From a virus (Duplodnaviria; Heunggongvirae; Uroviricota; Caudoviricetes): DNA of 33,778 bases. The notes beneath the pieces were generated by a model, which was given only the letters and a program-made list of their open reading frames with translations, ran no database searches and was not told where the DNA came from. Location: positions 1 to 33,778 of the IMG/VR virus record IMGVR_UViG_2531839450_000016. One strand, written 5' to 3'. Positions 19,485-29,808 of the stretch are shown in pieces. Both the position numbers and the translations under genes were made by a program. The first letter of the stretch is position 1; each line of letters begins with the position of its first letter.

Positions 19485-21251
19485 ATGAACACCACACTGA
19501 CACCCGCAGATCTCGATCCCCGTCGGCAGGCCATGCTGCTGTACTTTCAGGGATACCGCGTCGCCCGCATTGCTGAAATGCTGGGCGAGAAAGTTGCAAC
19601 CGTTCACAGCTGGAAAAAACGCGACAAGTGGGGTGACTATGGGCCGCTGGATCAGATGCAGCTCACCACCGCCGCACGCTACTGCCAGCTCATTATGAAG
19701 GAGCACAAAGAAGGGAAAGATTTCAAAGAAATTGACCTGCTGGCACGCCAGTCTGAGCGCCACGCGCGGATCGGCAAGTTTAACAATGGCGGCAACGAAG
19801 CCGACTTAAACCCTAACGTTGCCAACCGCAACAAAGGCCCACGTCGTCAGCCGGAAAAGAATGTTTTCACCGATGAACAGATTGAGAAACTGGAAGAAAT
19901 CTTCCATTCCTCTATGTTCAACTACCAGCGTCACTGGTGGGAAGCCGGAAAAACCAACCGCATCCGCAACCTGCTGAAGTCACGCCAGATCGGCGCGACC
20001 TTTTACTTTGCCCGTGAAGCCCTGATTGACGCCCTGCTGACCGGGCGTAACCAGATTTTCCTTTCTGCCAGCAAGGCTCAGGCCCACGTCTTTAAACAGT
20101 ACATCATCGACTTTGCCAAAGAAGTGGAGGTGGAGCTGAAAGGCGATCCGATGGTGCTTCCTAACGGGGCCACGCTTTACTTCCTCGGCACCAATGCCCG
20201 CACGGCCCAGAGTTACCACGGCAACCTGTATCTGGATGAATATTTCTGGATACCGAAATTCCAGGAGCTGCGTAAAGTGGCTTCCGGTATGGCTATTCAC
20301 AAAAAATGGCGACAAACCTATTTTTCCACGCCATCCAGTCTGACACACAGTGCTTATCCGTTCTGGTCCGGTGCGCTGTTCAACCGTGGGCGCAACAAAG
20401 CCGATAAGGTGGACATCGACCTGTCCCACAGCAATCTGGCCCCCGGCCTGCTGTGCGCAGACGGGCAATACCGCCAGATAGTCACCGTGGAAGATGCGGT
20501 GCGCGGCGGCTGTAACCTGTTCGACCTTGACCAGTTGCGCATGGAGTACAGCCCGGACGAATACCAGAACCTGCTGATGTGCGAGTTTGTGGACGATCTC
20601 GCGTCCGTGTTCCCGCTCAGCGAGCTGCAGGCAGGCATGGTGGACAGCTGGGAAGTCTGGACCGACTTTCATGCACTGGCCCTGCGCCCGTTTGGCTGGC
20701 GCGAAGTGTGGATCGGTTATGACCCGGCAAAAGGTACGCAGAACGGCGACAGTGCCGGATGCGTGGTGGTGGCGCCGCCAGCCGTGCCGGGTGGTAAGTT
20801 CCGCATTCTTGAGCGTCACCAGTGGCGCGGGATGGACTTCCGCGCCCAGGCTGACGCCATCAAAAAACTGACCGAACAGTATAACGTGACCTATATCGGC
20901 ATCGACTCGACCGGCGTCGGTCACGGGGTTTACGAGAACGTGAAAGCGTTTTTTCCTGCCGTCAGGGAGTTTGTCTACAACCCCAACGTTAAAAACGCCC
21001 TGGTACTCAAGGCCTACGACATTATCAGCCACCGCCGTCTGGAGTTTGACGCCGGGCACACCGACATTGCGCAGTCATTTATGGCAATCCGTCGCGCTAC
21101 CACTGCCAGTGGCAACCGCCCGACCTATGAAGCCAGCCGCAGCGAAGAAGCCAGCCATGCCGATCTGGCCTGGGCAACAATGCACGCACTGTTTAACGAA
21201 CCGCTGCAGGGCGAGTCCGCCAATACCAGCAATATTGTGGAGATTTTTTGA
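19485..21251 (+). CDS. P: Terminase ATPase (large) subunit gpP
   Basis: 588-aa ORF, divergent from O and followed by Q with a 4-nt overlap; P2 synteny and size. Confidence 0.9.
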   Translation: MNTTLTPADLDPRRQAMLLYFQGYRVARIAEMLGEKVATVHSWKKRDKWGDYGPLDQMQLTTAARYCQLIMKEHKEGKDFKEIDLLARQSERHARIGKFNNGGNEADLNPNVANRNKGPRRQPEKNVFTDEQIEKLEEIFHSSMFNYQRHWWEAGKTNRIRNLLKSRQIGATFYFAREALIDALLTGRNQIFLSASKAQAHVFKQYIIDFAKEVEVELKGDPMVLPNGATLYFLGTNARTAQSYHGNLYLDEYFWIPKFQELRKVASGMAIHKKWRQTYFSTPSSLTHSAYPFWSGALFNRGRNKADKVDIDLSHSNLAPGLLCADGQYRQIVTVEDAVRGGCNLFDLDQLRMEYSPDEYQNLLMCEFVDDLASVFPLSELQAGMVDSWEVWTDFHALALRPFGWREVWIGYDPAKGTQNGDSAGCVVVAPPAVPGGKFRILERHQWRGMDFRAQADAIKKLTEQYNVTYIGIDSTGVGHGVYENVKAFFPAVREFVYNPNVKNALVLKAYDIISHRRLEFDAGHTDIAQSFMAIRRATTASGNRPTYEASRSEEASHADLAWATMHALFNEPLQGESANTSNIVEIF

Positions 21252-22276
21252 TGGGAAAGAGTAAGAAGAACCGCGCTGCGTCGACGAAACAGATCCAGCA
21301 TAAAAGCCAGACTTCAGCCGAAGCATTCAGCTTCGGTGATCCCGTTCCTGTTCTGGACCGCCGCGAACTGCTGGACTATGTGGAATGCGTACAGATGGAT
21401 CGTTGGTATGAGCCGCCTGTGAGTTTCGACGGACTGGCGCGAACCTTCCGCGCCGCCGTGCATCACAGCTCACCGATTGCAGTGAAGTGCAACATTCTGA
21501 CCAGCACCTACATCCCTCACCCGCTGCTCAGCCAGCAGGCTTTTTCGCGTTTTGTGCAGGACTATCTGGTTTTTGGTAACGCCTACCTGGAGAAACGCAC
21601 GAACCGCTTCGGTGAAGTTATCGCCCTTGAGCCTGCACTGGCAAAATACACCCGCCGCGGGTTAGACCTGGATACCTACTGGTTTGTGCAATACGGTATG
21701 ACAACCCAGCCGTATCAGTTCACGAAAGGCAGCATTTTTCATCTGATGGAACCGGACATTAACCAGGAGATCTACGGCCTGCCCGGTTATCTTTCTGCCA
21801 TTCCGTCAGCTCTGCTCAACGAGTCCGCCACGCTGTTCCGCCGCAAGTATTACATTAACGGCAGTCATGCAGGATTCATCATGTACATGACCGATGCTGC
21901 GCAGAACCAGGAGGATGTGAACAACCTCCGCAATGCGATGAAAAGCGCCAAAGGTCCTGGTAACTTCCGTAACCTGTTTATGTACTCGCCTAACGGTAAA
22001 AAGGACGGGCTTCAGATTATCCCGTTGTCAGAAGTGGCGGCGAAGGATGAGTTCCTGAATATCAAGAACGTGAGCCGGGACGACATGATGGCGGCGCATC
22101 GCGTGCCGCCTCAGATGATGGGGATTATGCCGAATAATGTCGGGGGATTTGGGGATGTGGAGAAGGCCGCAAATGTATTTGTGCGTAATGAGTTAATTCC
22201 GCTTCAAAGAATTATACAAGGATTTAACGGATTTATTGGTGACGACATCATAAACTTCGAAAAATATAAATTATAG
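21248..22276 (+). CDS. Q: Portal protein gpQ
   Basis: 342-aa ORF downstream of P; P2 synteny and size. Confidence 0.9.
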   Translation: MMGKSKKNRAASTKQIQHKSQTSAEAFSFGDPVPVLDRRELLDYVECVQMDRWYEPPVSFDGLARTFRAAVHHSSPIAVKCNILTSTYIPHPLLSQQAFSRFVQDYLVFGNAYLEKRTNRFGEVIALEPALAKYTRRGLDLDTYWFVQYGMTTQPYQFTKGSIFHLMEPDINQEIYGLPGYLSAIPSALLNESATLFRRKYYINGSHAGFIMYMTDAAQNQEDVNNLRNAMKSAKGPGNFRNLFMYSPNGKKDGLQIIPLSEVAAKDEFLNIKNVSRDDMMAAHRVPPQMMGIMPNNVGGFGDVEKAANVFVRNELIPLQRIIQGFNGFIGDDIINFEKYKL

Positions 22277-22280
22277 AAAA

Positions 22281-22300
22281 TAGGCCTGTAATCAGGCCTA
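22281..22300. terminator. Hairpin between the convergent Q gene and the SIR2-like gene (possible bidirectional terminator)
   Basis: TAGGCCTG-taat-CAGGCCTA, located 5 nt after the Q stop and 6 nt before the SIR2-like stop. Confidence 0.45.
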
Positions 22301-22305
22301 GTATA

Positions 22306-23385
22306 CTAACATTGTTTACATAAATCAGAAAAACTACCACCGAAATAATACAGTGCAGATTTATCATTTAGTTCTTTAAAAACTTCACACGCACGCTGGT
22401 GTATCTCAATAGCACTAGATTTATTTCGCCCAATAATAACAGTCTCTTTTTCAGTACTATCGCCATCCAGAAAAGTCTTCAAAAGAAAATTAATAATAAA
22501 GTCTTCCTTTGGGAAAGAATAACCTATAAAGATCAACAGATCTGCTTGTCTCAACTGGGTAGAGGATTTCACAAAAGCTGTCTTAAAGTATTTATCCCCA
22601 TAGTCTTGTTCATTTGAAGGCAAGATAATATTTGGAACAACTTTTGCGTTTAATAATGAATCATAATCTATTTTAAAACCATCCCTTGCAGCAACAACCT
22701 CAAATCCTCCATTAAGCTTATACAAACCTATACCTTTAGGCTGAGGACACACTAATATATTATTATGATGCACAGGAAAACCCCGATTAACTGAACGTTC
22801 AGGGAATGCATGATGTAGCACTTTATCAATAACTATATCGTAGTTTGTTGTGACTACATCCAGTGCTGAAGCTTCCTGTAAACTCTTAAAGAAAGAAATA
22901 ATATTCCTTTTATTCTGCCCAAATTTTGCAGTTTGACTTAGCTTTAAATCATTTGCCGGTATTTTTTTTGCAAACTTATTTTTTACATATAGTTTTACTT
23001 GTGCCTCAAACAACTCAAGCGTATGCCTATCAAGATACGACGGCAATAAACTTGGATATCGCTTATAAACATCCAATGCATATTTAAAACTCTTGAAAAC
23101 ATTAGCTTTGTCATCTAAACCTGCATTAGCATCCGCCCATTTAAATTTAAGACTGTCGAACAAAGAAAAAAAACCATACTCATCAATATTTTCTAATGCT
23201 TCGTCTTCAGAGATGGAAAAGACTTCATTACTCAATGGGTATTTGTCATCCCAGGCTTTAGAAAATCCTGCTCCGAGAAAAACACATACTCTTCGCTCTC
23301 TTATTTTTGATTTCAATGTGGCGAAGGATGTAATTTCTAAATTATTAGGTGTCAAAATATCACCATCATAAGCAAAGCTAGTCAT
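22306..23385 (-). CDS. SIR2-like domain protein (putative NAD-dependent effector), second gene of an accessory cassette
   Basis: 359-aa ORF carrying, in order, VCVFLGAGFSKAW, VVTTNYD, YKLNGG and LLIFIGYSFPKED, which match the motif order of SIR2-like defence domains as I recall them; strongly AT-rich; starts 13 nt after the ATPase stop. Confidence 0.6.
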   Translation of the reverse strand: MTSFAYDGDILTPNNLEITSFATLKSKIRERRVCVFLGAGFSKAWDDKYPLSNEVFSISEDEALENIDEYGFFSLFDSLKFKWADANAGLDDKANVFKSFKYALDVYKRYPSLLPSYLDRHTLELFEAQVKLYVKNKFAKKIPANDLKLSQTAKFGQNKRNIISFFKSLQEASALDVVTTNYDIVIDKVLHHAFPERSVNRGFPVHHNNILVCPQPKGIGLYKLNGGFEVVAARDGFKIDYDSLLNAKVVPNIILPSNEQDYGDKYFKTAFVKSSTQLRQADLLIFIGYSFPKEDFIINFLLKTFLDGDSTEKETVIIGRNKSSAIEIHQRACEVFKELNDKSALYYFGGSFSDLCKQC

Positions 23386-23398
23386 GTTTTTCTCACGC

Positions 23399-24628
23399 TT
23401 AGTTTTTTATATCAAGAAAAGCTGGAACTAATCCAAATTCGCCACGTAAATATTTGGCAGACACTTTAGCATCTTTCCTTACAGAAAATACCGTAGCATT
23501 AGTTATTATCGACGCTTTAGATGAATCCTTGACTATAATATTAAGCTCATCTCTTCTAAACACATCATCTAATAAAGGAATATTATGTGTAGACATAATA
23601 AACTGCACACCATTTTTACGGCAGGTTTTATCAAATATTTTTTTGATTAGTGCACTTGCCAAAGAATAGTGAATAGATGAATCTATTTCATCCACATAAA
23701 GTGTAAAATCATATTCACTAGCCCAAATCAATATTGCTAAAAATGTTAAAACATTTAGTGTGCCTTGGGAAAAAAATTCATCCCTACGGTCAGGGCCTAT
23801 TCTAGTAAAATCACCATCATCATTTTTTATGAGATAAACAAATTTATACTCATTATCTTCGCCAAATCTTACAAATTCAACTTTATCTATATGCAGCGGC
23901 GACTGAATAACCATTTCATTATAGGTATTTAAAATTCTTTGACCACTCTCATTTAATTTTTCATTTCCTTCCTCACCTGATAACTGGCGCTTAAGTTGTC
24001 CTTCAACAAATTTAAGACTTGGATTTTTGAATTTTTCAGAGTAATAAGGCAATTGTTTTAATGCCCAGCGTTGGGTTTCAACAAGAGCATCAATTTCTAA
24101 AGATTTTGCAAAAGTTACAACAGCTCCACTTTCTCTTAAGACAGGATTAATCAACGACTCGTATTTTTTTAAGTCGGGCTTTTTGAAAACCAACCCATTT
24201 TCATTGCGAATAAAAATACATTGTTCCCTTGCATTTTTTCTTATCGGTCTAATGTATAAATACTCATCTACAATAACTTCATTTAAAACTGACACACCAT
24301 AACGGACGAAGTTTTTTTGCTCTTCATCAATCAGTATCGCTTCATAGGAAGTAGGTTTGTTACGACATTCCTTATTTAGAAGGAAAGGCATATGCAATTT
24401 GTGTAATGTGTCACTATGAATTGAATTTGCAAATTCAGTAATAGCATTTATTAATTGTGTTTTACCAACACCATTTCCGCCTATTAATGCGGCAAATCTG
24501 TTTACTCTTAAACCATTCGCTAATGTCACGATATGTTCAGGATGCTCATCCCCAATTGAGGAAGCAAAACTAAGAACCTGTCTTTCGCGAAAGCTCTTGT
24601 AATTTTCTAAACTGAATGCAACTAGCAT
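23399..24628 (-). CDS. ABC-type (AAA_15/AAA_21-like) ATPase, first gene of an accessory cassette
   Basis: 409-aa ORF; N-terminal MLVAFSLENYKSF followed by Walker A GGNGVGKT at about residue 50; C-terminal LYVDEIDSSIH (Walker B/D-loop) and STHN (H-loop-like); GAGGA ribosome-binding site 6 nt before the ATG; AT-rich. Confidence 0.7.
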   Translation of the reverse strand: MLVAFSLENYKSFRERQVLSFASSIGDEHPEHIVTLANGLRVNRFAALIGGNGVGKTQLINAITEFANSIHSDTLHKLHMPFLLNKECRNKPTSYEAILIDEEQKNFVRYGVSVLNEVIVDEYLYIRPIRKNAREQCIFIRNENGLVFKKPDLKKYESLINPVLRESGAVVTFAKSLEIDALVETQRWALKQLPYYSEKFKNPSLKFVEGQLKRQLSGEEGNEKLNESGQRILNTYNEMVIQSPLHIDKVEFVRFGEDNEYKFVYLIKNDDGDFTRIGPDRRDEFFSQGTLNVLTFLAILIWASEYDFTLYVDEIDSSIHYSLASALIKKIFDKTCRKNGVQFIMSTHNIPLLDDVFRRDELNIIVKDSSKASIITNATVFSVRKDAKVSAKYLRGEFGLVPAFLDIKN

Positions 24629-24748
24629 CTGAAGTCCTCATTTTTGCGTAAAAAACGCATTTTTGACTATTTCGGTAATGTAATCCAGTGCTAACGCAAA
24701 AGCAACTTAACATTTTATGTTATATTATTAATTATGTATCCGCGCGCG

Positions 24749-24767
24749 CTCGTATCCCCGCCACGCC
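24749..24767 (-). other. Candidate cos site (19-nt cohesive end)
   Basis: Minus-strand GGCGTGGCGGGGATACGAG followed by CGCGCGC resembles the P2 cohesive end as I recall it (GGCGAGGCGGGGAAAGCAC then TGCGCGC); located in the Q-to-A interval where cos is expected. Confidence 0.5.
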
Positions 24768-24816
24768 TGCCCGCTTTATGTAGTGGTTTTCATGCACCTG
24801 CATGATCTACGCAAAA

Positions 24817-24940: not shown

Positions 24941-25618
24941 CTAGAACGTGACAGCCTTGTCAAAGCCAGAAATAATTGTATAGGAAATAGACGAGTTATC
25001 AGCCTTGTTCACTTTGAACTTGGCACCTTTGTAAGCGATAACATCACTTCCCTTAGAATCTACAGAAAAATCTGTTGTAAACGCTGCACGAGCCATATCG
25101 TTTGCAAACTCACGATAGGTAAACTTCATTACACCGTCTGCATTTCCATTGTATTCGATAGTCTTAACCAATGAGTTACTCACTCGACACAGCCCATCAG
25201 GAACACGCTTGATAGAAATTTCTGAGGCTGTATAAGAAGTGCCGTTTGGTGGTGATATCTCATTTTTTGCAGCATCGTAACTTACATAATCAACATAGGT
25301 GCCGATTTGTCCATAGATATTTTTTAGCGCAACAGCTTGAGGATTATGATGATTGCGGTAAATTCCATTCCCTTCGCTGCAATATGTACCTGCAGAGATA
25401 GAAGATAGCGCACCATTAGCCGCACCAAGCTCTAGTACGTCCGTTTTATATCCAGTAGCAGATGTTATGATGGGGTCGCCCATGTAGGCTGTAGCACTTT
25501 GCCCAATAGCAGGCTTCACCACTTCAATAGCTGTGATATTTCGGTTAGAAGCATGAGGCACGCAACCAGTTAGGATTACAGCAAGAGATATAGGTAACGC
25601 AATATGGTTAATTTTCAT
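24941..25618 (-). CDS. Lipoprotein of unknown function (accessory gene next to cos)
   Basis: Likely start at the internal Met MKINHIALPISLAVILTGC (signal peptide with lipobox LTGC); AT-rich; occupies the position of tin/old in P2. Confidence 0.6.
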   Translation of the reverse strand: MKINHIALPISLAVILTGCVPHASNRNITAIEVVKPAIGQSATAYMGDPIITSATGYKTDVLELGAANGALSSISAGTYCSEGNGIYRNHHNPQAVALKNIYGQIGTYVDYVSYDAAKNEISPPNGTSYTASEISIKRVPDGLCRVSNSLVKTIEYNGNADGVMKFTYREFANDMARAAFTTDFSVDSKGSDVIAYKGAKFKVNKADNSSISYTIISGFDKAVTF

Positions 25619-25731
25619 TTTTAGCCTATTATTCTTTTCTTGACAAAAAACGAGGCGATATCTGATTGACATCACCTCTCACTCATATGTAACCCTTTTT
25701 AAGTATTAAAAACAAGCATCTATTGACAAAA

Positions 25732-25965
25732 TCAATGCAGCCAGCTGTCGTCTTCCCACACCTTCTGCATAATTTTCATCACTTGTTTTCTTTCTTCATC
25801 CAGTTGCAGTCCGGTCAGTTCCACACCGTTAGAGCTACCTTTACGGATACGAATTACCGTTTTGGGATATAGGGGGCGCAGATTGCGGTAAAGCTCGGAT
25901 TCAAGGGCGTCCAGGGTAGACTGGCTAATCTTCTGCTCTTTATCGATCATTATTTCAATGCGCAT
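25732..25965 (-). CDS. DinI-family protein
   Basis: From the internal Met: MRIEIMIDKEQKISQSTLDALESELYRNL...KIMQKVWEDDSWLH, which resembles E. coli DinI (MRIEVTIAK...ALAGEL...ETWESADDW); strong GAGGTGA ribosome-binding site. Confidence 0.8.
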   Translation of the reverse strand: MRIEIMIDKEQKISQSTLDALESELYRNLRPLYPKTVIRIRKGSSNGVELTGLQLDEERKQVMKIMQKVWEDDSWLH

Positions 25966-25975
25966 AAAAGTCACC

Positions 25976-26164
25976 TCAACTGATGACATCCATTGAGCGG
26001 TTGTATTCGTGGGTTCTGATTTTTGCCATGAGTTCATCTGTCAGTTCAGAAACCCACTGCAGGGCCAGCCCCTTCTCTTCATCACTACACTCACTAGCCG
26101 CTACAAGCTTAAGAAAAAAATCAATGCGCTGGAGCTTCAAAGACTCCAAAAAATAGTCCTGCAT
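25976..26164 (-). CDS. Small hypothetical protein (62 aa) upstream of the DinI-like gene
   Basis: ORF from MQDYFLESLK... with an AGGAGG ribosome-binding site; immediately downstream of a LexA-box-like sequence. Confidence 0.5.
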   Translation of the reverse strand: MQDYFLESLKLQRIDFFLKLVAASECSDEEKGLALQWVSELTDELMAKIRTHEYNRSMDVIS

Positions 26165-26207
26165 TTTTCCTCCTATGACACCACAAGCAATACTGTATAC
26201 ATAACCA

Positions 26208-26223
26208 CTGTTTATATTTACAG
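26208..26223. promoter_or_regulatory. LexA (SOS) box
   Basis: CTGT-ttatattt-ACAG (CTGT-N8-ACAG, AT-rich spacer) inside cactgtttatatttacagta, about 45 bp upstream of the small ORF / DinI-like pair. Confidence 0.55.
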
Positions 26224-26317
26224 TATATAATAACCTTACTGATGTAAAACGTTTTTTTACGTTCATCAGCATGATATGCCTGGTATTATTAAGAGCACGA
26301 ATTGTTAACCCGCGTAA

Positions 26318-28732
26318 TTAATACAGGTTCCGCCACTTATCATCTTCCTGCAAACGCTGGTTCCGATAGAAGATACGCAGGCCTGCTCCTGACGGAATAC
26401 TGCCTCCGCGAAGGAGTAAATCGACCTCTTTCTCGCTGCCATCAAATCCTCTGGACTTCAGCTCATACACGAGCTGCAGTCGCTGATGGTCTGTAATTCG
26501 CTGTTTGTAGTCTTTACGCCGTTTCGGTTTCACCAGGCGTAACCTTGCTGCCAGTTCCCGGCACTCTTTTTTGCTCATACTGTGCAGGTAATCGTGCAAC
26601 TCCTTGTCATCCATGCGGGTAATATCCGTTCTGGTGTCCCCATCAGCTGATTTATCTTTCTCCTGTTGGTTCAAATTTTCAGCAAGGGGACAGTTATTGC
26701 CACGAGTCCAAGGGGCGCAAGCGCCCTGGTCGGCTACCGCCTCCTGAACGTCAACGGCCTTACGAACCATTTTCCACTTCACTGCATGAGTGCAGATCTT
26801 GCCCTCTGAAATGGGTGACCAGATGCCATAAATACGAATACCGTGATCGCCATAGGCGGTCGGCTCTTCGTTGATTTCATAAGCGGTTCTGATGAGGTGA
26901 TATTTACGGGGAACCAGTACGCCGCCCTGCTTCATGATGTAGGAGGCAAAACAACCAGCATCAGCAGCAGCCAGGATGGCATCAAGGCGCGGGTTATCCA
27001 GTACCGGCGCACCTGCTTTTTTGTCCCCCTGTTGCCTTGCCGCCTGACCAGCCAGCAATCGCAGTTCACGGTAAGCCTGACGCCCCGGAATGCCAAAGAA
27101 GCGGAATTGCTGAACACGATGCAGAGACGCCCAGGCATTAACGTATTCAGCGTTATCACGCAGGGATTTACCCGTTTCCTTGCTGATCTCACCAGCCAGA
27201 CCACGCCCGTCAATGTTCTTACTGATGTATTTCGCGATGTAGCTTGTTGGCGTACCTTTGCGCGGGTTTATCAGCTCAGACTTAAAGCGTGGTCCCGTGT
27301 TATTACCCAGCTCCTCGCGGTCTTCACGAATGGCAAACTTACGCAACAAAGCAGTAATGGCTCGGCGATCTTTTTTGCGCATAAAACACAACAGGTGCCA
27401 GTGAACTGTACCGTCATGATGCGGCTCAGCCACCCGCACGCCATACCAGCGCAATCCGGCTTTGTGCATCGCTTTACGAAATGCAGCAAACATGCCGACC
27501 AGATAATCACTGCTTTGTCTTACCGTCGCGTTTGTCCAGGTCGGGTTTGGTCTGCCGTTATTTAGCGTGGAATGGAAACGTGACGGACAGGTGATGGTGT
27601 AGAAAACGGCGCAGTCACCGCGCATTTCCGCGATAAGCTCCAGACCTTTAACACAGGCCATCATCTCATTGCGGCGATGCGCAGGGTTGCTGCTGCTGGC
27701 GTTTACCACATCCTCCATGTCCAGCGTGTCGCCGTCTTCGTTCACCAGTTCATGAGAACGGAAAAACTCCAGCGACTTACGGCGCTGCTCACGTTTATGC
27801 AACACGGCTTCATAGCTGACATAGGGAGATACTTTTTTGCTGACAAGGCAGACAGCACGCAACTGCTCTTCCCGCCATTCGCAACGCATCTTCCATAATT
27901 TCCGATACCACCAGTCGGCGCATAACATACGCGCCAGCGAACCCGGAATGAGTTCATAAGGCACGGGTTTACGGCGGTTTCTTTTCCGACGGAGTTGCTC
28001 AAACGCAGGCGGGATAACATCCAGACGCAGGGTTTCCGCTGCCACCTTTTCCCATGTCTTGCGGATTTCTTCTGGCGTAACATCATCGGTGGCATACAAA
28101 TCGCCACAAGCTGTATCAAGGCACATGCTCATATGCGCAGCTACCAAGGTGGACAGGCGTTTCACCTGATCCTGACTCATTTCAGGCAGGATCAGCAGGC
28201 CGTCCAGCCCTTCATGGCTTGCCATAAAGCGAAAAGAAGTGGATAGCTGACTGTCGCGTACATGCTCCAGTCGTTCCAAGCATGGCTTAATCGTCTCACG
28301 CAAATAGCGGGAATAAGCCTTTGGCCTGCCCAGGCTGCTGAAGTATTTAATACGTTGCATCAGCGGCTTGCTGATATGGGAAGGCTGGGCGTTGACGTCC
28401 GCCAGAATGGCCATGTCTGGATTAAAACGCTGCTGCTCATGCGCCAGCTTTGCCCGGCTAATTAGCTTATCCTGCTCCATTTCGCGTTGGACAGGATCAC
28501 GGGATTCATTAAAGAAATAACGCTCCCAGACCTGATCACTCAGTGCCTCGCGGCGTAGTTGTTCCTGCTCGTTATCGGCAGCGTACAGAGTGATCAGGTT
28601 TGAAAGCGCAGAAACCGGCGCAACTTCCGCCGGGTCCAGATAAGGGTTAATGGCCTTTTTCGGGCTGTTCCATGAGAATGCTGCGGCGACCTCGTTAAAG
28701 CCGCTGCAGTTGTTCATATCAGCATGGCTCAT
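26318..28732 (-). CDS. A: Replication initiation endonuclease gpA (rolling-circle initiator)
   Basis: Large ORF with a His-rich motif ([14 protein letters not shown]) consistent with a rolling-circle Rep metal site; probable start ATG at 28730-28732, overlapping the Dam stop (ATGA). Confidence 0.9.
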
Positions 28733-29586
28733 GCACGCACTCCGTACACGACGGAACAATCCACGCCACGCGAAGGATCAAATCCTACCCAGCAGCGCGG
28801 CCCGGAAACAGCGATGATTTCTGTTGCTGATTTACTCTCACCAGCTGCTACGCCGATGCTGCGTTTTACCTTGATATAGTGGTGAGTAAAATTGCGATAC
28901 AGCGAACGGATCAGGGATGTGTCACTGTTAGAAACAATGACCGGATGTCCTTCTGATGACCGATGTTCAAGAACGGATGCCAGGTGATACTGGTCATCTT
29001 CAGTAAAGCCGTCAGCGTGATAGCCGGAAAACGTACCGTCATAAGGCGGATCGCAATACACCACATCCCCCGCCTTCAACATCGCCAGCGTTTCATCAAA
29101 GCTGGCGCAGATAAACGTTGCTCGCTGGGCTTTTTCTGCAAAAGCGCGAATTTCTTTTTCAGGGAAATACGGATTTTTATAATTACCGTAGGGAATGTTG
29201 AAATGCCCGCTCTTGTTATAGCGACATAACCCACGGTAACCGTGACGATTGAGATACAGGAAATATACCGCTTTCATGAAATCAGTAATTTCAGTTGAGT
29301 AATTAAACTCCTGCCTTATGTTGTAATAAGCCACCTCCCTGTTTGCGATCTCAAATAAAACTTTGGCGCGAGATATAAACAATTCACAATCAGCGGCAAC
29401 CTTTTTATAGAGGTTGATTAAATCAGGATTAATATCCGCAACCAGATAGCAGGGATAATCCGTCTCCATCATCACAGCACAGGAACCCGCGAAAGGTTCA
29501 ACTAGTCGCGGACCAGCAGGAAGATGTTTTTTCAGTTCGGACATTACGGCGGTTTTATTTCCCGCCCATTTCAGGATGGTGCTCAT
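28729..29586 (-). CDS. dam: DNA adenine methyltransferase (Dam family)
   Basis: From the internal Met: [11 protein letters not shown]... (the N-terminal motif typical of Dam) and DPPY catalytic motif (VYCDPPYDG); start ATG overlaps the stop of the TraR-like frame (ATGA). Confidence 0.85.
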
Positions 29587-29808
29587 ACAGCACCTCCGTT
29601 GTAATGTTTGCCTTTCAGCTCTGCGATTTCCTGACAGGTAATGCAAAGCTGCACCCGGAATGGCACGGCGGCGTGCTGGCGGAATTGGCGCTTCACACTC
29701 AACGCAAAGCACGCGGGACACGCCCGGCGTTTTGGCACGGGCAGCACGGATATGGCGCTGGCGTTCTTCTTCAACGCGCTGCTGTACGAGATCCATTGCA
29801 TCAGCCAT
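29583..29808 (-). CDS. TraR/DksA-like C4 zinc-finger protein, apparently frameshifted in this sequence
   Basis: The N-terminal half in one frame (..LCVECEAPIPPARRRAIPG) and the C-terminal half in the +1 frame (..QLCITCQEIAELKGKHY..) together match the TraR pattern C-x2-C-x17-C-x2-C; the frames switch near 29650-29660 at a CCC/GG run. Confidence 0.5.

Follow-up and report, generated by a model that had tools for sequence, protein, structure and literature searches.

A Two-Gene Cassette Between the Portal Gene and cos

The stretch of DNA analysed here (the window; 33,778 nucleotides (nt), IMG/VR record IMGVR_UViG_2531839450_000016) is a P2-like (Peduoviridae) prophage, and this work concerns a cassette of two genes which it carries between the portal gene Q and the cos site. 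Gene 1 encodes an ATP-binding cassette (ABC) ATPase of the AbiLi/RloA type, and gene 2, directly downstream on the same strand, a protein with the sirtuin fold (Table 1); their arrangement is an operon layout. Built like the AbiL/RloAB and PARIS systems, this cargo operon most likely protects the lysogen from other phages.

The phage context of the cassette is well delimited. Positions 549-22220 of the window are 96.5% identical to Escherichia phage Cartapus, and the genes flanking the cassette score as portal, terminase, DinI, Dam, gpA and integrase. On the right, the cos-like sequence GGCGTGGCGGGGATACGAG is found on the minus strand at 24767-24749, and the Cartapus record begins with 58 nt, annotated there as a P2-type cos, to which the minus-strand stretch 24786-24729 aligns with a single mismatch. 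Similarity to Cartapus on this side stops at about 24739, placing the boundary at about 24739/24740; from both limits of homology (22220 and 24739), a variable segment of about 22221-24739 can be deduced. For P2-like phages, experiments have documented the gpQ-gpA interval as a hotspot of defence genes (Rousset 2022, PMC9122126; Vassallo 2022, PMC9519451). The cassette lies in it, between portal Q and cos/gpA, and the content of the slot differs from that of Cartapus. In the latter, the closest sequenced phage, the slot between cos and the portal gene holds a single DUF4145 gene (162-860), an uncharacterised candidate cargo.

The guanine-plus-cytosine (GC) content is 0.32-0.35 across 22200-24600, versus 0.52-0.63 in the phage core and structural genes on its left; gpA, on its right, has 0.51-0.54. 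An original prediction, made from the letters of the window, had described two minus-strand genes 13 nt apart in a visibly AT-rich stretch, a hairpin (22281-22300), a cos-like site (24749-24767) and, from their position, defence cargo in the hotspot of a P2-like prophage. The open reading frames (ORFs), the composition, the Cartapus alignment of cos, and the flanks and variable content of the slot agree with this description throughout.

Several putative expression signals accompany the genes. The ribosome-binding site (RBS) of the ATPase gene, GAGGA, is situated at 24639-24635, with the ATG 6 nt further on. At the other end, the hairpin has an 8-bp stem (22300-22281, minus strand) followed by TTTTCT; the stop codon of the SIR2 gene lies 5 nt before it, and the hairpin abuts the end of gene Q (stop at 22276). 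Additionally, a palindrome, TGCGTAAAAAACGCA (24645-24659), immediately precedes the ATPase RBS. Read on the plus strand, this element has the score of a terminator-like hairpin, with TTTTTG after it; read on the minus strand, it is part of the 5′ leader of the operon, where it might act as an operator or in regulation.

Table 1. Features of the cassette and of its flanks, with window coordinates.
Feature	Coordinates	Strand	Basis
Portal gene Q, left flank of the slot	21248..22276	+	Phage_portal 9e-16; Cartapus homology stops near 22220
Terminator-like hairpin, TAGGCCTGATTACAGGCCTA then TTTTCTATAA	22271..22300	-	
Gene 2, SIR2_2-family protein, 359 amino acids (aa)	22306..23385	-	ORF list, Pfam, PADLOC, alignments, model
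Intergenic spacer, 13 nt, GCGTGAGAAAAAC, with a weak GAGA Shine-Dalgarno-like element	23386..23398	-	
Gene 1, AbiLi/RloA-type ABC ATPase, 409 aa	23399..24628	-	ORF list, Pfam, PADLOC, Foldseek
AT-rich cassette leader	24629..24739	-	
Conserved P2-type cos region, right flank of the slot	24740..24786	not assigned	58-nt Cartapus cos alignment

Domain Identity of the Two Proteins

The product of gene 1 belongs to the ABC ATPases of the Rad50/SMC-head type (AAA_15/AAA_21). In Pfam it matches AAA_21 with 52.6 bits (9e-14; gathering cut-off 27) and AAA_15 with 39.2 bits (9e-10; cut-off 32.1). Its best PADLOC model is AbiLi (PDLC02335, 2.2e-51), aligned over residues 1-406; PDC-M12A, AriA (5e-16), PDC-M07A, ATPase-Toprim_I-B and HEC-01A are matched as well, and a scan against NCBIfam gave no hit above cut-off. 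The motifs GGNGVGKT, LYVDEIDSSIH and STHN, all in the order given by the original prediction, occupy residues 49-56, 310-320 and 346-349, respectively. Across 57 aligned homologues, residues of Walker A (G50, N52, G55, K56), the ABC signature (S287, G289, T290), Walker B (D313, E314), H320 and the H-loop (H348) are invariant; R358/D360 and the FSVRKDAK block are conserved features of the C-terminal part. The AlphaFold model (predicted local distance difference test, pLDDT, 86.8) retrieves with Foldseek PtuA from Septu and retron systems, Rad50, SMC heads and the Thermus OLD protein (E 1e-12 to 1e-9; template modelling (TM) scores 0.4-0.5), a short helical insert (residues ~151-285) taking the place of the Rad50/SMC coiled coil. 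With its ATP-binding and hydrolysis motifs all kept, the protein looks catalytically competent.

Gene 2 encodes a member of the SIR2_2 family, as indicated by its Pfam score (35.5 bits, 1.3e-8, gathering cut-off 24.5, residues 177-323), its NAD-binding motifs and its fold. PADLOC returns only generic sirtuin models for it (Aga_SIR2 1.9e-9; SIR2 2.5e-8). The Rossmann motif GAGFS is found at residues 38-42, followed by TTNYD (179-183), KLNGG (223-227) and IGYSF (287-291); in the alignment of homologues, G38, A39 and G40, together with T180, N181, Y182 and D183, are invariant. A model built on 60 homologues reached a pLDDT of 91.6 and a predicted TM score of 0.89. Its best Foldseek matches are the Sir2 subunits of SIR2-HerA (8yhx, 8sub, 8uae, 8wld; E 4e-13 to 1e-10, TM 0.5-0.6), followed by canonical sirtuins and ThsA.

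The original prediction had called an ABC/SMC-type ATPase and a SIR2-like domain, and both calls stand, by profile scores above threshold as well as by fold. Since the gathering thresholds are passed and both proteins have conserved homologue families, the cassette is not a product of chance.

An Altered Sirtuin Active Site

The four SIR2 blocks are all located where they had been predicted; what had been overlooked is that KLNGG is not the canonical form, and that the catalytic His is absent from it. K223-L-N225-G-G227-F-E229 stands where canonical sirtuins have K-L-H-G-S-x-N, and Q260 where they have Lys. In the profile of the family, the segment L-Y-K-L-N-G-G-F-E-V aligns onto LYKIHGSINW, LWKLHGSINW and LYKLHGSLTW in three solved Sir2 chains; N181 thus corresponds to N226 of SaSir2, N225 to H287, and Y289 to Y352, the residue contacting the nicotinamide ribose in SaSir2. 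The equivalent His is retained in human FAM118B (H206).

Relatives of the SIR2 protein were searched among 1.84 billion representative proteins, and 10,723 SIR2_2-like sequences were found, just 74 of them at E <=1e-30. The top-ranked relatives with a readable motif present K-[LIVM]-N-G-G in all cases but one (53 hits, including a few N-G-S), and the next tier K-[LI]-H-G-S in 51 out of 51. In this search the K-[LI]-N-G-G sirtuins make up a discrete clade of about 55 clusters at 50% identity; we will refer to them as N-type, and to those retaining the His as H-type.

When 97 N-type and 53 H-type full-length sequences are compared, the replacement of the His appears as part of a coordinated switch (H225N, S227G, N229E, K260Q and W271F), in which each position is 96-100% conserved in the H-type. 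Further residues are specific to the N-type (W45, Y110, P111, D119, R201 and Y266), and those of the NAD pocket are common to both (G38, A39, G40, S42, T180, N181, D183, G288, Y289 and D295). Judged from these alignments, the pattern resembles selection for a re-wired function rather than decay.

Conservation and Mobility of the Pair

SIR2 homologues with at least 33% identity are found in Enterobacterales and in Vibrionaceae/Alteromonadales, and wherever the locus of such a homologue was inspected, the gene just before it on that strand encodes the ATPase. Besides the window, paired loci were inspected in E. coli E9, Klebsiella sp. R390, Pantoea stewartii, Serratia marcescens, Providencia rettgeri, V. 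parahaemolyticus and a lineage of the Vibrio harveyi group; the ATPase-SIR2 junctions of seven relatives range from an 8-nt overlap to a 20-nt gap. For at least 13 pairs of SIR2 and ATPase clusters, the longest source sequence is of the same size in both homologue tables, and pairing is kept down to 33-39% SIR2 identity.

All of the inspected contexts of the pair are mobile elements, in line with the enrichment of homologues in phage and defence contexts which had been expected. The pairs of Escherichia, Klebsiella and Pantoea occupy the same gpA-portal slot of P2-like prophages. That of Providencia adjoins a P4-type primase and an AbiEii toxin, and that of Serratia neighbours Vsr, a cytosine methylase (Dcm), DUF4928 and HNH_2 within an integrase/Ogr island. 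In filamentous (Inovirus-like) Vibrio prophages the pair directly follows Zot (L002-L004, 4781-7086; L084/L085, 5731-8107), with Rep_trans and DUF1293 also present and, in one of the lineages, a secretin. It is regarded here as candidate defence cargo of the filamentous phages in both V. parahaemolyticus and the V. harveyi group.

Close copies of the cassette are scarce. Among the matches listed for 5426 complete E. coli genomes, it was found outside the window only in strain E9 (poultry, 99.7% identity), where the annotation goes no further than “AAA family ATPase” for gene 1 and “SIR2 family protein” for gene 2. The query had matches in 1257 E. coli records; apart from E9, all of the matches listed correspond to the cos flank only. 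Similarly, 43 phage records match the cos flank alone, and the cassette is absent from the 50,697 records of sequenced phages searched. Plasmids yielded merely three SIR2 homologues, all of them distant and solo.

Origin of the Pair

Within its own family, the ATPase shares 48-94% identity, and the next relatives share 22-30% over the full length. The three outgroup ATPases examined all have a protein matching Pfam RloB encoded immediately downstream, and one of these pairs is recognized by PADLOC as AbiLi (2e-96) and AbiLii (2.9e-25); the Vibrio orthologue of the cassette ATPase scores as AbiLi with 1.7e-49. The split of RloB-paired versus SIR2-paired ATPases was recovered in 100 of 100 neighbour-joining bootstraps, with the Vibrio sequence on the connecting branch, and this tree, unrooted and distance-based, is compatible with a single replacement of the effector. 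Identity to the RloB-paired group amounts to 30% in the N-lobe and 34% in the C-lobe, and drops to 10% in the middle insert; the insert is thus the most divergent part, as would be expected if it formed a partner-specific surface.

The SIR2 side presents a different distribution. The N-type includes a larger sister group (25-32% identity, about 380-400 aa, about 55 species), distributed over Bacteroidota, Burkholderiales, Alphaproteobacteria, Chloroflexota and others. No ATPase homologue was found in its loci, and clustering of the neighbours of about 55 of them gave no conserved partner; the inspected H-type relatives likewise stand alone, including one from a Mu-like phage. The simplest history compatible with these comparisons would be that an AbiL-type ATPase exchanged its RloB partner for an N-type sirtuin which until then had stood alone.

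Two solo loci deserve a separate mention. The N-type sirtuin of Vibrio crassostreae has a DUF4238 protein two genes away, this domain having been validated as anti-phage (Rousset 2022, PMC9122126), and one metagenomic N-type sirtuin is preceded by a KAP NTPase of 1088 aa.

Proposed Function and Alternatives

In the defence function proposed here, the ATPase would restrain the SIR2 protein or assemble with it, and a phage cue would alter the state of both, the ATPase acting as an infection sensor that gates the sirtuin; the SIR2 protein would then consume NAD+, or transfer from NAD+, leading to the arrest of the infected cell. In PARIS, AriB is kept sequestered by AriA, and its release is triggered by a phage protein, for instance Ocr; in SIR2-HerA, the ATPase partner can switch the Sir2 NADase on. 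The confident SIR2 model, closest to the Sir2 of SIR2-HerA and hence to another ATPase-controlled NADase, counts in favour of this proposal. So do the conserved residues of the NAD pocket, the AbiLi, AriA and PDC-M12A matches of the ATPase, the RloB partners of its outgroup relatives, the constancy of the pair, and its carriage on mobile elements, including the documented defence slot of P2-like prophages. The original prediction had also proposed an ATPase sensor with a SIR2 effector: architecture and context hold, whereas the NADase step is weakened, as the catalytic His is an Asn clade-wide.

Confidence differs among the parts of this proposal. Quite probably, the cassette has an anti-phage function. 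The roles of ATPase sensor and SIR2 effector are somewhat favoured over other assignments, and NAD+ depletion as the killing chemistry is possible, if rather doubtful; its likelihood was lowered owing to the Asn at the catalytic position. With the NAD-binding motifs kept and the catalytic His gone, NAD+ depletion is plausible, not assured.

Several observations weigh against the defence reading and its chemistry. The position of the catalytic His is Asn in 97 of the 97 full-length members of the clade. Characterised defence sirtuins work with an Asn/His dyad (N133/H171 in DSR2, N226/H287 in SaSir2, N142/H186 in SPARSA) whose His is essential, the His-to-Ala mutants of DSR2 (H171), SaSir2-HerA (H287) and SPARSA (H186) being dead; gene 2 keeps the Asn of the dyad (N181), and its His is replaced by N225. 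The solo sister group indicates that the SIR2 protein has no intrinsic need for the ATPase. Neither PADLOC nor NCBIfam gave a system-level match, and no AbiLii, AriB or HerA partner was found. The scan between the ATPase ATG and cos detected no consensus sigma-70 promoter on the minus strand, and the cassette is rare (1/5426 complete E. coli genomes among the matches listed, 0/50,697 phage records). Finally, the defence function is one that we infer, for the pair as well as for its homologues.

The re-wired pocket also bears on an alternative which is unlikely, although the least so of those considered: a defence system in which the SIR2 protein is not an NAD+ hydrolase. It would carry out other NAD-dependent chemistry (e.g., it would make a nucleotide product, or ADP-ribosylate a target in the phage or the host), or else NAD+ or ADP-ribose would be only a regulatory ligand, toxicity coming from elsewhere. 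The requirement for the His in the three characterised NADases speaks for it, as does the fixation of His-to-Asn in 97/97 N-type sequences along with three equally fixed changes (96-100% conserved in the H-type), a pattern pointing to a functional shift rather than decay in a protein that keeps its NAD-binding motifs. Nevertheless, the closest solved structures are NADases. In sirtuins, nicotinamide cleavage depends on that His less than the later deacylation steps do, and can proceed without it; the Asn/Glu pocket could therefore still hydrolyse NAD+. Bolder still, and rather improbable, is the idea that the K-[LI]-N-G-G sirtuins as a clade perform a chemistry unlike that of the characterised defence sirtuins (ADP-ribosylation or a nucleotide product), their capture by an AbiL-type ATPase in Enterobacterales and Vibrio giving rise to a new effector mechanism.

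A toxin-antitoxin or addiction module, with the SIR2 protein as toxin and the ATPase as antitoxin, which mainly stabilises the prophage or element, is quite improbable. PARIS, the best-understood relative in architecture, formally behaves as a type II toxin-antitoxin pair, and the cassette pair is always on mobile elements; however, PARIS is both things at once, so that addiction does not exclude defence, and the slot is enriched for validated defence genes; the observations made here fit either reading. A role outside conflict (packaging or replication near cos, host metabolic reprogramming), or inert acquired DNA, is hardly credible: the cassette adjoins cos, is very rare and has no detected promoter, but in close phage relatives the slot is without the cassette or filled by unrelated genes, making the cassette dispensable for the phage, the same pair recurs in unrelated elements (filamentous phages, integrase islands), and the intact ORFs, with catalytic and ligand motifs invariant over distances of 28-39% identity, argue for purifying selection.

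Neighbouring Genes of the Window

Beyond cos, an ORF of 244 aa (24941-25675, minus strand) starts with a lipoprotein-signal-like N-terminus (…LAVILTGC); it has no Pfam match, but a strong one to phrog_1353 (2e-101), a family of unknown function. E9 has a DUF8087 gene where the window has this ORF, which reveals a second variable cargo position in the hotspot.

Two further loci differ in their gene limits from those of relatives. At 28729-29808 (minus strand), a TraR/DksA zinc-finger (33-54) and an entire MethyltransfD12 domain of the Dam type (81-318) share one ORF of 359 aa. E. coli E9 and the Pantoea prophage have a separate gene for each, with an overlap of 4 nt; the ORF of the window may be an in-frame fusion, or result from a frameshift or assembly difference. 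At 25732-26272 (minus strand), the DinI-like ORF is given as 101 aa, with the DinI domain from residue 38 onwards, and overlaps an ORF of 98 aa (phrog_698). The real starts of both are probably further downstream; the annotation of E9 has, at the same place, a gene of 234 nt for a DinI-like protein and one of 189 nt given as hypothetical.

Novelty and Significance

The exact protein pair is present in published data: Table S5A of Rousset 2022 (PMC9122126) lists WP_000959164 + WP_097511163 and WP_000959164 + WP_000200278 among the “AAA_21 + SIR2_2” arrangements of the P2 hotspot, with no curation, name or test. Full-text literature searches, whose coverage did not include the Krishnan 2020 ABC ATPase classification, found no paper on a system of an AAA_15/21 ATPase with a SIR2 protein, nor a description of an Asn-type defence sirtuin. 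On the other hand, the association of AAA_15/21-type ABC ATPases with varied effectors is an established theme (Burman 2024). Thus, both the architecture and effector swapping as a principle are already established; for this particular partnership and for the re-wired pocket of the sirtuin, the literature searched has no description.

If the pair proves protective, sirtuins would be a further class of effectors for the AAA_15/21 ABC-ATPase phage sensors (Old, Gabija, PARIS, AbiL, Septu, MADS), and the pair would be a clean natural example of an effector swap, with the two-gene AbiL systems as a ready comparison. As a small and tractable pair (409 + 359 aa), it lends itself to the questions of how an ABC ATPase gates a sirtuin and whether a His-less pocket can destroy NAD+. 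Its carriage on P2-like phages, P4-like elements and filamentous vibriophages also bears on the trade of immunity genes among temperate elements. The practical stakes are modest, since the system is rare and the general principle already established, and new ATPase-effector combinations are expected by specialists in this hotspot; a clade with a fixed His-to-Asn change, captured by an AbiL-type ATPase, is worth a bench test.

Comparison With Known Systems

As to whether the cassette corresponds to an already named system, the question left by the original prediction, PADLOC, NCBIfam and PHROGs scans gave matches at the level of components only, and no correspondence at system level in PADLOC or NCBIfam. 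The comparison is therefore made component by component.

Among sirtuins acting in defence, ThsA, DSR1/DSR2, Avs5 and SPARSA Sir2-APAZ share with gene 2 the SIR2_2-type fold lacking a zinc module, and motifs of the GAGxS and TTNYD types; unlike gene 2, they keep the Asn/His dyad. The single-protein systems sense through fused SLOG, HEAT-like, STAND or APAZ/pAgo parts, whereas the cassette has a separate ABC ATPase. The SIR2 gene cloned and tested by Rousset (pFR88) encodes a sirtuin from outside this family, whose motif is GSGLT. SIR2-HerA (Nezha) is nearer, as it is also made of two genes for an ATPase and a Sir2 protein, the latter being the closest to the cassette SIR2 in structure and matching it by sequence profile. 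Nonetheless, identity is about 15%, the order in the cassette is ATPase then SIR2, and the His (SaSir2 H287) is changed to Asn. The cassette is not a SIR2-HerA system: its partner is an ABC ATPase with no HerA/DUF87 match, not a hexamer of the HerA/FtsK type. With regard to PD-T7-2, a divergent Sir2/HerA system (Vassallo 2022), its model is not among the PADLOC matches of either protein.

On the ATPase side, the P2 old gene (class 1 OLD) occupies the same hotspot of P2-like phages and its product has an ATPase head of the same broad family (6p74 match); Old is, however, a single polypeptide with a fused Toprim nuclease, and the cassette has no Toprim. Septu (PtuA/PtuB) and the retron-associated PtuAB share the layout of an ABC ATPase plus an effector, and PtuA is the top structural match of gene 1 (8eea, 2e-12) as well as a weak match by sequence. 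The TM-scores are only 0.4-0.5, the effector of Septu is an HNH nuclease, and no PtuB partner exists in the cassette, which discards membership.

PARIS (AriA/AriB) likewise combines an AAA_15/21 ABC ATPase with a separate effector in P2/P4 hotspots, and its AriA model matches gene 1 (5e-16). The match is partial, AriA is absent from the top 50 structural matches of the cassette ATPase, and the cassette encodes no AriB/DUF4435/Toprim protein; it is thus not a PARIS system. AriB acts by tRNA cleavage, whereas the cassette effector would be NAD-linked. PARIS serves as the mechanistic template for the proposed defence function, with an ATPase sensor/antitoxin that releases an effector.

AbiL (AbiLi/AbiLii), equivalent to RloA/RloB, has as second gene a Toprim-like AbiLii/RloB protein where the cassette has SIR2_2; gene 2 gives no match to AbiLii, RloB or DUF4276 in Pfam or PADLOC, and the cassette is accordingly not an AbiL system. 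Its ATPase is 22-30% identical to that of AbiL/RloAB, and the middle insert is unrelated. In all other respects compared, both are built alike: an AbiLi-type ATPase of ~400 aa is encoded first and the effector second, in tightly coupled genes.

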